The notes under the pieces were generated by a model, which was given only the letters and a program-made list of their open reading frames with translations, made no database searches and had not been told where the DNA came from. A DNA stretch of 64,000 nt. Source: Octopus vulgaris (Eukaryota). Of the stretch, positions 1-8,000 are shown piece after piece. Position numbers and translations under genes: made by a program. Numbering within the stretch: position 1 is the first letter of the stretch; every line of letters begins with the position of its first letter. Location of the stretch: positions 23,002,001 to 23,066,000 of the forward strand of contig OX597836.1 of NCBI GenBank assembly GCA_951406725.2, given 5' to 3'.

Positions 1-111
1 TGGGCTTACAAAGAATAAGTCCCGGAGTCGATTTGCTCGACTAAAAGGCACTGCTCCAGCATGGCCGCAGTCAAATGACTGAAATAAGTAAAAGAGTATA
101 TATATATATAC

Positions 112-1160
112 TACAAAATAAGAAAATGGAGAAATACATCTAAATCAATTATCAACTACCAGATAATACCCAATCACATAATTTATTAAACCACTACATA
201 TGAACATTAAGGTCAAACATATTAATATAGAACAAAACAGTGTACATGAAGGAGTAATATGGTACAATAAGTACAGTATGTATAAGAGAATATAAAAATA
301 TAAATATACATATAAACTACATCTTACAGCTGTTTCGGCCATGCAGATATGGGTGTCTCATTTTGCTCATATTAGCCATGTGTGATAGGTCAACATGTAG
401 TTATAAATGAGACACTTACAAAAATATCACAAGGCCTCTTCGGAGATTATGAAATACAAACAAAGTCGAGAGTACATTATATTAATTTACAAAATGTCAT
501 TCATATTAACATCATTACTATTATCATTACCACTATTGCTACTAATATCACTATTATTATTATTAATAACACTAATACTAGCTCTGCATTTGAGTATTAA
601 TATGTGTATGTTTTCTACATTGTAATATAATATTAAGTTGAAAAACTGTAACATTGAATATGGAACATATGTTTGTATATTGATTTATATTATTATGTAT
701 ATATATATGTATAGGAGTATGAGTATATGCACTCATATGTATGTGTATATGATATATTATGGGTATGTACCCACACTTGTATGGGTGTACCTACTCTGAT
801 ATTCATATCTAATTTAGTTTGTATTTCATAATCTCCGAAGAGGCCTTGTGATATTTTTGTAAGTGTCTCATTTATAACTACATATTGACCTATCACACAT
901 GGCTAATATGAGCAAAATGAGACACCCATATCTGCATGGCCGAAACAGCTGTAAGATGTAGTTTATATTTATATTTTTATATTCTCTAATACATACTGTA
1001 CTCATTGTACCATATTACTCCTTCATGTACACTGTTTTGTTCTATATTAATATGTTTGATCTTAATGTTCATATGTAGTGGTTTAATAAATTATGTGATT
1101 GGGTATTATCTGGTAGTTGATAATTGATTTAGATGTATTTCTCCATTTTCTTATTTTGTA
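112..1160. mobile_element. Penelope-like inverted pseudo-LTR structure (arms 112-461 and 817-1160)
   Basis: About 350-bp inverted arms differing by about 4 substitutions and one 6-nt indel; each arm carries a hammerhead-like motif. Confidence 0.7.
831..957 (+). ncRNA. Putative type I hammerhead ribozyme (CCGAAGA core, extended helix II); mirror copy at 321-447 (-)
   Basis: ATCT-CCGAAGA-GGCC...GGCC-GAAA-C-AGCT-G-TA/AGAT. Confidence 0.6.
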
Positions 1161-1511
1161 TTATTAATTTGTGGTAAAACATTTTACCTTTGCCCATATA
1201 ATACAGTAAATGAATTAATTGCATTGCAATTCTTAACATTTATGTATTAACTTTGTTGGGTACTTCACTAGCAGTATATTGGATATATGTTATCCCATGG
1301 AGGGTTGCATTTACAACCCCTATCTTAATTTATACATATATATATATAGCAAATTAAGGAACGGCCATAATAGGCCGTTCAACCCACTAGAAATAACAGC
1401 CAAGGCTTCAACTGCAAAATAGTAGTAATTCCGTAAATCAGGAGAAAATTAAAAAAACATTTGCCCTTTCCACTTTATACAATGCATTGTTTCATCGTTT
1501 TTTAATGGTAA

Positions 1512-1514
<3 letters not shown>

Positions 1515-1589
<75 letters not shown>
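1515..1589. repeat. (TA)n microsatellite
   Basis: Direct reading. Confidence 0.95.
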
Positions 1590-1939
1590 GTGTGATGTCT
1601 GGACAGGGGATTGATTGAATCTGTAGAGCATTGGGAAAAAATACCTTGTGGTATTTTGGAATTTGGGAACATTCCTTTCCTTTCTGAATTCAAGTCCTGC
1701 CCAGGTCTTTCCTTCTTTTGAGGTTGATAAAATACGAAGACCAGACAGATATAATTTTGGGGAATTGATGCAATCGACTATAAATGTTAAAATTGGTGCT
1801 CCAGCATGGTCGCTGACCAGTGAGTAAAACTAATAATAAAGAATTCACAAGAATCCAGATGATGCCAAATACCGTTGTCTTATGTCGTAGCTTGTAATTT
1901 TCAAGGGTGTTTTTTTTTGTTTTTTTAATCTTTATTCAG

Positions 1940-2064
1940 AGTTCGATGACTCAGTAAAAGATAATGATGACATAGAAGAAGCCAACGGTGACCCCAGTCA
2001 TGGCACACAGGCATCAATGCCAACCAGTGCACCAGGGAGGCACAAGAAGGAATTCTTCAAAAAG
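1940..2064 (+). CDS. RNGTT: RNGTT exon (acidic linker [13 protein letters not shown]...KKEFFKK)
   Basis: tttattcag|AG...AAG|gtaatc. Confidence 0.85.
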
Positions 2065-5000
2065 GTAATCAGCACTACTACTACTATTACTACTGCAACT
2101 ACTACCACCAGCATCACCACCACCACTACTACTACTGCTGCTATGACTGCCACCACCACCACCATCACGACTACAACTACTACTACTACTGCAACCAAGA
2201 CAACAACCACCACCACCACCACTACTACTACTGCAACTAAGACTACTACTACCACCATCACCACCACTACCATTATTACTACTGCAACCACCATCCCCAC
2301 CACCACCACCATACTACTACTATTGCAACTATGACTACTTCTACCATCATTACCACCATTACCATTATTACTACTGCAACTACGACCACCACCACTACTA
2401 CTACCATCATCACCACCACTACCACTATTACTACTGCAACTACGATTACCACCACTAACTACTACCACCATCACCACCACTACTACAACTAATATTACTA
2501 CCACCACCACTGTTCAACACCATTATCATTATGCATCCACATCCCATGCTGCCATGGGTTGCACAGCTTAACAGGATCCAACTTGTTGTAGAACCACAGC
2601 TTTTTCCAATGTCTAAGTTTTGCCATGGTTTTCTATGACTGAATGCCCTTCCCAATGCCAACCACTTTACTGTACTTTGTACTTGCGGTGGCATTCACTT
2701 AAGGTGGGTTGAGCTGGCTCCGACCAATGAGTTTGCCATGTTCCTCATGAATGCTGCCCACATCCAACAGCTAGTTACAGTCAAGGCCAGCAGGTTCAGT
2801 AATGCATCTGCCTGCAGCCCAAAAATCTGGCTTGTAAATTTGACAACTGCCCTCCTGGGAAAGCAAGCATGTCAGATAATACAGATACTGTAGCTGTTGA
2901 GGCATAGAATTCTTGTTCTTTACAGACTGTACTGACATTAGGTGCCTTTTTTTGTTTTTTTCTTTGATGCACCAGCACCAGGGAGGTTACAAGACTTAAG
3001 GGATCTCTTGACCAAGAGGGAGAAAAGAAAAGAAGGGGTGACTTTCTGTAAGGTGTTGAGAGGTTGATGTATGATGTATTAAGGAGGCGAGCTGGCAGAA
3101 TCATTAGCATACTGGGCGAAATGCTTAGTGGTATTTCATCTGCCGCTACGGTCTGAGTTCAAATTCCGCCGAGGTCAACTTTGTCTTCCATCCTTTTGGG
3201 GTCGATAAATTAAGTACCAGTTATGCACTGGGGTCGATGTAATCGACTTAATACCTATGTCTGTCCTTGTTTAGCCCCTTGTGGGTAGTAAAGAAATAGG
3301 TATTTCGTCTGTCATTACGTTGTGAGTTCAAATTCCGCCAAGGTCGACTTTGCCTTCCATCCTTTCGGGGTCGATAAATTAAGTACCAGTTACGCACTGG
3401 GGTCGATGTAATCGACTTAATACCTATGTCTGTCCTTGTTTGTCCCTTCTATGGGTAATAAAGAAATAGATGTATGATGGGAAGAACAGGGACAGGTCTA
3501 TTATTGCAGAGGAGGGATGGATTGATGTCAGAAAGAGTAAAAGACGGTGGTGGCAAGATGCCTAAGCATGTTCTTAATGGCAACATGTCCAAGAAAGTAA
3601 ATGAAGGAGAGCATGGAGACAGAAAGACGGATTGGATCAAGAGCTGGATAGGGAAATAAAGGTGGGAGGGAAGAATGATTGATGAAATGAAATAGGGCTG
3701 ATGATGTAGTGAGGTGTAGAAGGGAGTGAATGTAGGGAACCGTGAACAAGTGATGGGGTTAGGTATAAAAATAAGACATACACATTGTAAAACATACTTA
3801 TTGACATAACTTCTGCTTTCAGAATGCCCAGTTCATGGAAGGTGTAAGAGGAGTATATGCTGTTGAAGACCAGTCCCTTCTGTCCAGCATACAGCGCAAA
3901 TGCCAAGACATGTGTGGATGGAAGTTGTAAGTTGAGAAGGTTTTTTTTAAAAAATTTATTTCATCTTTATAGTTGACATTTTTTTTTTAGTTGTTTATTT
4001 CTTTGAATATAATTTTCATTATCATTTAATCCTTTGTGGAGGTGCGTGGCTTAGTGGTTAGGGTGTCAGCACCATGATCGTAAGATTGTGGTTTCGATTC
4101 CTGGACTGAGTGACGCATTGTGTTCTTGAGCAAAACACTTCATTTCACATTGCTCCAGTCCACTCAGCTGGCAAAAATGAGTAACGCTGTGATGGACTGG
4201 CGTCCCGGCCATCTGGGGAACACATACGCCATAGAAACAGGGAAACCGGGCCCATGAGCCTGGCTAGGCTTTAAAAGGGCACATTTATTTGTAGAGGCGT
4301 GTGGCTTAGTGGTTACTGTGTCAGCACCACAATCATAAGATTGTGGTTTCGATTCCTGGACTGGGCGACGTGTTGTGTTCTTGAGCAAAACACTTCATTT
4401 CACGTTGTTTCAGTCCACTCAGCTGGCAAAAATGAGTAACGCTGCAATGGACTGGCGTCCTGTCCAGCTGGGGATGGTTTAAAGGCTAAAGGGTTAATAT
4501 TCACTTTACCATGCTTGCATGGGTCAGATGGAGTTTGAGGCAGATTTTCAACAACCAGGTGCCCCTCCTGTCCCCAACCTTTGCTCGTTTCCAAGCAAGG
4601 TAATATTCCTCCATGGCCAGAAAATATTTTCCACCAAGGACTGGAGATGAATGACACCCCTTATATGACAGGAATGCTCATTTACAACCATATCATGATA
4701 TCAAAACACACACACACACACACACAGTGAAATACTATGAGTCTGTCTATCAAATTCACTCACAAGGCTTTGCTTGGCTTTGGTATATTGCAGAAGAGAT
4801 ACTTGCCTAAGGTGCTGCTACTCAGTGGGACTGAAACCCAAGTCACATGACTGGGAAGCAAATTTCTTAACAACAAAACCACACCTGCCCTCAAGTTAGC
4901 ATTAATTACATTTAGTTGGTTTGACTGTACACAGGGACACTTTCTGCATGTTAAAACAGTATTGTATTTACTGATGATTTGTTTGGCTGTACTCAGGGAC

Positions 5001-8000
5001 GCCTTCTGCATGTTAAAACAATAATTAGTGTAGATTGTATTTACTGGTAATTTGTTTTTGTTTTGTTTTCTTCAGTTCTGGGTTTCCTGGCTCCCAACCA
5101 GTGTCAATGGACATAAACAATCTCATCTACCTCAAGCAGAAACCATACAAAGTTAGCTGGAAAGCTGATGGAACAAGGTCAGTTAAACTCATTTCCATAG
5201 TGAACTGTTTGCTACACAACTACTACTAGTAGTAGTAGTGATGGTGTTTTATGTATGACTATCCATCCATCCATCTCTCTTTCTCTTTGTCTCTCTCTCG
5301 CTATATGTATATATATTATAGACACGTGTGGTTGTTGCCAGATCTAGTTGACTGGCTCTTGTGTCGGTGGCACGTAAAAAGCACCCACTACACTCTCGGA
5401 GTGGTTGGCGTTAGGGAGGGCATCAAGCTGTAGAAACTTTGCCAGACCAGATTGAGCCTGGTGCAGCCTCCTGGCTTCTCAGACTCCAGTTGAACCATCC
5501 AAGTCATGCCAGCATGGAAAGCGGACGTTAAACGATGATGATGATGATGATGACACACACACACACACACACACATTGGTCTAGTGGTTAAGATGTTGGT
5601 CTCTTGGTTATGAGATTGTGAATTCAATTACTGGGGCAGGAGATTCATTATGTTTTCAAGCAGGGCACCTTTTTTCATGTTGTTTCAGTCTATTCAGCTA
5701 AAAATGAATACCAGTTAAGGATTCATGCAGCCCACCTTTCATATCTTCACTGCTGCATTTGGGTAAAGGGCAAGAGGGTCAAGAGAGTATCTATGCCTGC
5801 TTGTTACTATATGGACACCTAACACAATTAGCATATATGACTTGTTGCCTGCAAGTAATGGCTATCGTTTTGTGTGTGTGTCAGATCATCATCATCATCA
5901 TCATCATCCTTTTAACATCTGTTTTCCATGTTGGCATGGGTTGGACGGTTTGACCAGAGCTGGCAAGAGGAGTGCTGTACCAGGTTCCAGTCTTATTTGG
6001 CCTGGTTTCTATGGCTGGATGTCCGTCCCACTTTACAGTGTGTGCTGGGTCCTTTTTAACATAGCACTGGCATGCGTGCTTTTACAGGGTGCCCAGCACA
6101 AGTGCTATTATGTGATACTGACAAGGGTGTTTATGTAGTGCCAGCACAAGCGCTTTTAACGTGGCACCGGCACAGGCGTTTTTTTACATGGCACTAGCAC
6201 AAGGCTCTTGCAGGCCAATCCTATACACACACAGTATACTGTTCAACTATTTGCAGGATCATCAAAAATGTGCTCAATCCAGTTAGAGATAAGTATCATT
6301 TAATGAATACAGGAGTTATATCTGAGCTGCTTCAAGTTTCATCTTGGATAGTGCAGTAATCAGATGAGCTTGTACATGCATATAATGCATGATCCAGCAC
6401 CAGTTCATCACCATGCATGGTAAGCTGTACATGCTCATCTAATTACTGCACTATCCAACCATGAAACTTGAAATAGCTCATGTATAACAGCTATATTCAT
6501 TAAATGATATGTGTGTTTGTGTGTATGTACATATAATCTTTTACTGATTTCAACCACTAGACTGTGGCCATGTTGGGGCACTGCCTTGAAGAAACTTTTT
6601 TAGTTGAATTGATCGACCCCAATACATTTTTTTAAGCCTGGTATTTATGTATATGGATGTGTGTGTGTTTGTGTCTGTGTTAATCCCCACCGCCACCACC
6701 ACTTGACAACCAGTGTTGGTGTGTTTACATCCCTGTAACTTAGCAGATCGGCAAAAGAGACTGATAGAATAAGTACCAGGCATAAAAACAAAAAAAAAGT
6801 ACTAAAATTCCTCAAGGTGGTGTCCCAGCATCACTGCAGCCTAATGACTGGAGTAAAAGGAAGTTTATATTCACTTGTGTGACCATCATCTCTAATTTCA
6901 GGTACATGGCCCTAATAAATGGCCCTGACAACGTCTACATGATCGACCGTGACAACGCTGTGTTCCATGTACCCAATTTATTGTTCCCATCCCGGAAGAT
7001 TCCATCAGAACATCTCACAGAAACTCTTCTAGATGGTGTAAGTGAATAAATTACTGTTTCCTACATGTGTGATACAAAGTAGCTTTATTAGTACATCTTT
7101 ATATGTCAATCTTCCTTTCCATTTTGTTGTAAATATGTCAGTCTCAGGACAAAAGACTCAATAGTTTCCATGCTATATATTTAGTCAGGTGTGACGCTGC
7201 ATGGCCCAGTGGTTAGATTGTTGAGTTTACACTCATATGAGGTGGTATCAAAAGGTTCCAGGACCAGTTATGTTTAATAAAAGTAACTTATTTACCTAAG
7301 TTTTAACATCATTTCCTTTAAAATAGTCACCTTGCGCAACAATACACTGGTCCCAGCATTCCTACCACTTTTGGAATCCAGCCTAGAAGTCGATTTCTGT
7401 AAGCGAACTGAAGACTTTCTGCAATTCTCTCTGGATCTCGACAACGGTGTCAAAACACTGACCTTTGAGCTGCATTTTCATTTTGGGGAAGAGATGGAAG
7501 TCTACAAGTGCTAAATCTGGCAAATAGGGCAAGTACGGAACCGGTACTGTGTTGGTTTTGGCGAAAAACTCATGAGTGAGGAAAGATCCAGTTGCTTTTG
7601 CCGAATATCCTCTCTCAAACGCTTCAAAACGTTGCAATAGAATTCTTGATTGGGATTCTGCCCCCCCCCCCTCCTGGAGGACGAATTCTCAATGCACAAT
7701 ACCACATTTCCAGGGGTGACACTTGTGGCAGGTTTTTCAGATCACTCCTCGTCTTTCAGGAACATTCTTCTGCTTTTGAAGCACCTGTGCAACTCGAAAC
7801 ATTGTATATGACCCATTGCCTTGTCACTGTAAGTTTGTCAAACCATTCCGACTGGCCTCCGTACCGGTGGCACGTAAAAAGCACCATCCGATCGTGGCCG
7901 TTTGCCAGCCTCGTCTGGCACCTGTGCAGGTGGCACGTAAAAAGCACCCACTACACTCACGGAGTGGTTGGCATTGGGAAGGGCATCAAGCTGTAGAAAC

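Follow-up and report, generated by a model that had tools for sequence, protein, structure and literature searches.

The first part of the window, as we call the whole 64-kb stretch of DNA analysed here, lies in an intron of the RNGTT gene on the + strand. Upstream of the window, the same strand carries motifs that we take to be those of the RNGTT triphosphatase, and downstream exons match the guanylyltransferase domain (PF01331) at window positions 5095, 6897 and 10436. The host intron spans approximately -1348 to 1939, with the insertion inside it. An earlier note on this DNA had described an inverted repeat of about 350 bp in an RNGTT intron. The motifs, exons and intron bounds bear out the placement, and local alignment bears out the repeat itself, with arms at 108-464 and 814-1164 in which 345 of 351 aligned positions are identical and one 6-nt indel occurs; a separate repeat analysis divides the inverted repeat into I1+I2.

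While the inverted repeat stands, the element exceeds the 112-1160 originally assigned to it and reaches from 112 to about 1333, including the spacer and a 171-nt tail. Comparison of 30 loci assigns the spacer and the downstream flank to the same element as the arms, in the order upstream UTR, segment A, segment I, arm and tail. In the window, the arm and A are inverted and are followed by I, arm and tail in direct orientation, the whole being bounded by TA runs:

97-110, no strand: (TA)n target run of the left flank, where an older high-copy repeat has its 3' end; ends of the family abut (TA)n runs (sequence)
112-464, - strand: left arm, a pLTR copy in inverted orientation, without a tail and ending at the proximal 3' end (alignment, end mapping)
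321-447, - strand: left-arm hammerhead motif, which is antisense in the RNGTT pre-mRNA (motif search)
465-582, - strand: 118 nt of element 3' UTR, inverted; its junction with the left arm bridges a skip of ~240 nt unique to this locus
583-813, + strand: element 3' UTR immediately preceding the right arm, equal to the piece skipped in the left copy minus its first 5 nt
814-1160, + strand: right arm, a direct pLTR copy (alignment)
831-957, + strand: type I hammerhead motif of the right arm, with a predicted cut after 953 (sequence, fold)
842-941, + strand: stem II rod of 100 nt, conserved, with two-sided changes across subfamilies
1161-1333, + strand: tail of ~171 nt, from the proximal to the distal 3' end, its end placed to within a few bases in the TA run
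1281-1319, + strand: two short hairpins (1281-1295 and 1302-1319) just before the distal end, near-invariant in sequence and free of two-sided changes
1334-1347, no strand: TA-rich run of the right flank (sequence)
1940-2064, + strand: next RNGTT exon, part of the host gene and outside the element

To the left of the insertion, window 1-96 holds the 3' terminus of a SINE-like repeat of very high copy number, and to its right another repeat (1349-1480) starts with an 8-bp hairpin at 1359-1380.

From 112 to about 1333, the window holds a single insertion, 5'-truncated and head-to-head, of a high-copy Penelope-like retroelement of the Hydra clade. The arm is a high-copy repeat, with 2,125 first-look candidates and about 40-44 scored matches in the 2.8 Gb of genome searched for copies. 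A Penelope-like origin had been suggested from the hammerheads and the layout, together with a BLAST-type search for a full element; with this search run, the arm is found linked elsewhere in the genome to reverse transcriptase (RT) and GIY-YIG frames in longer copies, which supports the origin. At L034, L052-L054, L057, L058 and L061, the arm and tail are placed 3' of a GIY-YIG frame and 5' of an RT frame. In L034, RT and GIY-YIG pieces are located 5' of a 2.2-kb UTR and the arm, and in L052-L054 open frames of 955-962 residues sit between two pLTR ends ~5.6 kb apart, the unit length being ~5.6 kb. The frames contain MGSPDS/YRDD and YIG motifs; the Pfam match to GIY-YIG is weak (E 0.0015, below the cut-off), and the protein fragments scanned gave no match to the RT Pfam domain.

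Assignment to the Hydra clade follows the marks and the (TA)n insertion given in section 11 of Craig et al. 2021 (PMC8557442), matched by eye to the printed alignment blocks, with a tree that covers this genome's copies only. HSDKT, with DKT replacing DKG, occurs in L052-L054, L057 and L058, an N-terminal RWK in L057 and L058, and RWR in L052-L054, while the P0001 protein, read by eye, offers CNCRNKNKC (CxCx5C), CSLC (CxxC) and CIH (CxH). A TA run follows 73 of 105 proximal and 46 of 55 distal anchors, most of the others continuing into element sequence, and the family includes partial tandem pLTRs, inverted 5' copies and one-sided tails. As described in that section, the Hydra clade shares an RT with C-terminal GIY-YIG, DKT, RW[RK], CxCx5C, CxxC/CxH and (TA)n targets, as well as a 3' hammerhead, often with an ACAG..CTGT helix III and a GUA triplet. 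Comparison with these published marks led us to drop a first guess of Nematis. A non-LTR retrozyme, which consists of short non-coding tandem repeats with one hammerhead in each unit, was rejected, since the copies derive by truncation from the end of an element that has coding frames and do not form short tandems.

Several features differ from the published clade (PMC8557442, as far as its text and File S2 describe it). The unit of ~5.6 kb contrasts with generally < 3 kb, a descriptive criterion, for Hydra elements, and the Asn-rich inserts seen here are unlike those elements. All 26 Hydra rows of File S2 have the core CUGA, a stem II of 3-7 bp and a loop of <= 10 nt, and Hydra-1_Obim represents a different family with a short stem II. 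The long Asn-rich stretches are located between RT thumb and endonuclease in L052-L054 and L115; similar ones are reported in Adineta Penelope elements (PMC3846280, in the part describing them). An acceptor-like pyrimidine run with AG directly precedes the start codon in L052 (3360-3402), L057 and L114, and this site, together with a 600-nt AT-rich 5' UTR, suggests a putative intron in the element leader. Nested insertions were also seen (L034, oriented 1925-5581; L059; L120): a non-LTR element (RVT_1 and zf-RVT matches) splits a Hydra frame, and members of one Hydra family lie within the (TA)n ends of another.

Each arm contains a hammerhead motif, as the note had claimed, on the + strand at 831-957 and mirrored on the - strand at 447-321. 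Helix I is formed by 831-834 and 954-957, and the core CCGAAGA (835-841) harbors the U4C change. GAAA (942-945) leads into an 8-nt palindrome, ACAGCUGU (945-952), and the GUA triplet (951-953). The two features singled out as unusual, the C at core position 4 and a stem II of ~100 nt, are both real, and the latter folds into a rod (z = -4.96; none of 200 shuffles does as well). The proposed search with hammerhead models gave a divided outcome. Rfam misses the motif, with 0 hits at the gathering score in the 64 kb and no hammerhead among 14 weak hits in window 1-2000, whereas exact two-block patterns recover it throughout the family.

Of the three helices predicted around the core, stem II is strong and helices I and III are weak in the monomer, forming ~4% and ~1% of the time, respectively. 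A dimer formed through the 8-nt palindrome would gain an 8-bp helix III, predicted at -11.1 kcal/mol. The predicted weakness of helix III in the monomer is in line with the dimer-only cleavage described for metazoan Penelope-like element (PLE) motifs by Cervera and De la Pena 2014 (PMC4209133, main text), whose hammerheads share the type I form, the short helix I and the palindromic helix III. Their stem II measures 7-8 bp, and U4C goes unmentioned in that text. On these folding models, the lone U4C motif is predicted to be close to inactive.

Across the genome, the exact two-block pattern matches 533 times with C4 and 1,406 times with U4, both lower bounds given the exact pattern, and a reversed-pattern control matches 0 times. 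The motif is therefore not a product of chance, and the core and GAAA, which the note had expected genomic copies to keep, are indeed conserved. The full canonical core, CUGANGA, is present in the 1,406 U4 family matches, the locus itself carrying C at position 4. Within the element family, stem II measures 80-100 nt and the core is often CCGA; entire subfamilies are fixed for C4 and have GUA or GUC as their triplet, and the youngest group (mean identity 98.2%) combines U4 with GUC. In a DNA tree with position 4 masked, drawn without support values and with two long-branch rows that are truncated copies, the C4 and U4 groups interleave. U4 is found in the older relatives L122 and L125 and in three outgroup families. 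Because of this interleaving and the U4 of older relatives, position 4 has likely switched more than once, as judged from trees of this genome's copies.

The long stem II is shown by sequence comparison to be conserved across the family. It folds as a rod in each subfamily tried (z of -4.7 to -5.9, sense strand, 4 of 4 copies). Among 27 aligned copies, which are related by descent, 92.9% of cells are paired, rising to 99.6% in the inner helix, against 31-42% in slid controls. Two-sided changes affect 7 of 22 pairs, a number that 44 of 500 shuffles also reach and that is thus not above shuffles, but both the two-sided-change cells and the covariation score exceed all 500. The inner two pairs of helix I and the two pairs of helix III are kept in 27 of 27 copies and, being invariant, are uninformative for covariation. 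The palindrome is likewise invariant in 27 of 27, and the outer helix I pairs are broken in 9-11 of the 27.

A natural U4C change has been described by Perreault et al. 2011 (PMC3088659, in the passages on this variant), where the same core change lowers activity in vitro and still allows viroid infectivity. Unlike in the viroid, C4 is fixed here in hundreds of retroelement copies and occurs in a second, short-stem family as well. Our literature search found no long-stem-II or U4C hammerheads in such elements; Lunse et al. 2017 or the figure supplements of PMC4209133 may show them.

The ends of the copies offer a greater level of detail about how the insertion formed. Copies of the family end at two fixed points, equivalent to window 1160 and ~1333, and the distance between them is 170-171 nt in 47 of 57 measurements, overlapping loci included, and 155-173 in the others. 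All 28 head-to-head pairs examined consist of one proximal and one distal end, a result with a probability of ~8e-10 were the ends independent, although the loci were chosen as best hits or first-listed matches and are thus non-random. The 28 pairs substantiate the inverted pLTR layout that the note had given for such elements. Their strict composition fits two priming events per insertion, and we infer one such event for each target strand. On the element map, the left cDNA resumes within 5 nt of the point at which the right cDNA stops. Another arm with an internal skip is present in L004, where the skip is located at a 5-nt microhomology.

It is highly probable, in our judgement, that the locus represents a 5'-truncated head-to-head Penelope-like insertion into (TA)n, made in one event with two RT starts on the element RNA, with the inverted repeat a likely by-product rather than a means of host control. 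The endonuclease would nick both strands of the (TA)n run. One 3' end would then prime at the distal site, yielding tail, arm and 231 nt, while the other would prime at the proximal site, copy the arm, jump ~240 nt and copy 118 nt more; the ends of both cDNAs would then be joined head to head. The hammerhead would cut only as a dimer via the 8-nt palindrome, or with the help of an element protein, and U4C would likely slow cleavage further without blocking spread. Within RNGTT pre-mRNA, the two arms would base-pair with each other, leaving the motif uncut.

One-sided tails and inverted copies are already known (PMC3846280; PMC8557442, Fig. 2 legend), and opposite-strand hammerhead pairs 100-700 bp apart have been reported in metazoan PLEs (PMC4209133, main text). 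The inverted 5'-truncated pLTR insertions in the relevant parts of PMC3846280 and PMC8557442 share the head-to-head copy beside a direct copy and the tail at one end only. Their published tails measure 30-40 nt, which makes the tail of ~171 nt unusual; in a few copies of other Hydra families of this genome it measures ~100-160 nt. The closest parallel for its origin comes from the anole element PAc Poseidon (Frangieh et al. 2024, PMC11167929, in the sections on priming and the hammerhead). There, the tail is tied to two internal RT starts with both strands nicked, and the hammerhead is a predicted dimer, protein-assisted and dispensable in vitro. Both systems share two fixed 3' ends that define the tail, AT-rich targets and a hammerhead near the starts. 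PAc Poseidon, however, belongs to another clade, and its starts lie close together inside the ORF, whereas those described here are in non-coding RNA ~170 nt apart. A structure joining both ends folds with z = -2.9, its long-range stem having no two-sided changes, which lends it weak support. The twin hairpins at 1281-1319 fall in the best-conserved part of the pLTR and are a candidate signal for the distal RT start.

A GT..AG pair lies within 1 nt of the two boundaries of the ~240-nt skip in the left arm, a coincidence that template jumping alone leaves unexplained. It could be accounted for if the left arm derived from spliced and the right arm from unspliced element RNA, the skip being a removed intron that ends just before helix I. 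In Drosophila virilis Penelope, an intron end indeed maps to the 5' side of helix I (PMC4209133, main text). The skipped piece starts with GTATGT or GTATAT in 16 of 16 matched copies and ends with TTAG in 22 of 30. However, 6 of the 30 have TTGG instead, and the youngest subfamily has no AG there. The junction is one base longer than a clean splice and occurs once in the genome, even with a pattern allowing 0-6 bases at the joint, and the skip in L004 lies at another place, with microhomology. Since the joint is one base off and unique, the AG is not conserved and L004 skips at microhomology, we prefer template jumping and regard a spliced template as improbable.

We give equally little credence to a layout that arose after insertion, through inversion or deletion in a simpler inverted pair. 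In its favour, long inverted repeats are unstable, and the 582/583 junction is blunt. Nevertheless, the outer ends obey the family rule exactly, and the two inner breakpoints are no more than 5 nt apart on the element map, as they should be if the second primer took over where the first stopped.

The note had further proposed that the ribozyme fold competes with the arm duplex, so that a self-cleavage site is kept silent by its own antisense copy. As equilibrium physics, the competition is right, since the duplex is predicted at -567 kcal/mol and the probability of stem II drops to ~0 in a fold of 100-1170; as a function, it is unsupported. Genomic copies display no ADAR footprint, private changes on the sense strand (A>G 38, T>C 46, G>A 42, C>T 24, with 84 of 101 aligned copies placed in groups) showing no strand excess. 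The sense motif does lie within the RNGTT pre-mRNA, and selection might remove insertions that cut and have no antisense arm. Yet the same layout recurs at 27 other loci, and the arms resemble each other (98.2%) no more closely than they do unrelated copies (98.2-98.8%). The minimal hammerheads of metazoan PLEs do not cleave as monomers in vitro (PMC4209133, main text). In three runs presumed to be RNA, the next RNGTT exon appears in the interior of longer contigs. For the insertion itself, none of the runs listed with a match is recorded as RNA, and the contigs that align there stem mostly from other copies of the family. With helix III at ~1% and helix I at ~4% in the monomer, and no second sense copy of the motif in the window, little needs silencing. 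That the host keeps the inverted pair as a device, either silencing self-cleavage by the antisense arm or tuning RNGTT splicing by an edited duplex, is the least probable of the readings and very unlikely; the inverted repeat is likely a by-product of insertion, not a regulatory switch.

The locus is ordinary and its class of element known. Mildly new are the family-wide features, namely the conserved long stem II, the amplified U4C core and the ~170-nt tail. The family matters modestly, as it bears on two questions, the role of Penelope hammerheads and the origin of the tail. Sister U4 and C4 subfamilies, intact young copies and a 170-nt tail with its 28/28 pairing rule make both directly testable. 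Hammerhead searches restricted to a short stem II undercount such motifs.

Three further, more distant Hydra-type families (L059, L114-L117, L119-L121), whose RT is 53-62% identical to P0001, possess canonical cores, stem II regions of 55-59 nt and differing helix III palindromes. In the few copies available, two 3' ends lie ~160 nt apart in L117 and L119 and ~100 nt apart in L121. We tentatively entertain, at somewhat less than even chances, that in the Hydra elements of this genome a stem II of 55-100 nt is kept for a job other than cutting (e.g., binding an element protein), that the core switches back and forth between U4 and C4 while the elements go on spreading, and that RT starts ~170 nt apart act in strict pairs, one per target strand. 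If so, the family would offer a natural experiment to decide if cutting is required of Penelope hammerheads, and short-stem descriptors would be missing a hidden class of long-stem variants.

Among the more distant families, L116 is a 3.6-kb tandem array. A second repeat family (L126-L137) has a short-stem hammerhead sharing the ACAGCUGU palindrome and the GUA triplet, with 1,998 genome matches that include both C4 and U4 (C4 in 59 of the 100 first listed). No coding frame was found in the 12 loci of this family that were examined; its copies are short, TA-flanked and at times arranged head to head.
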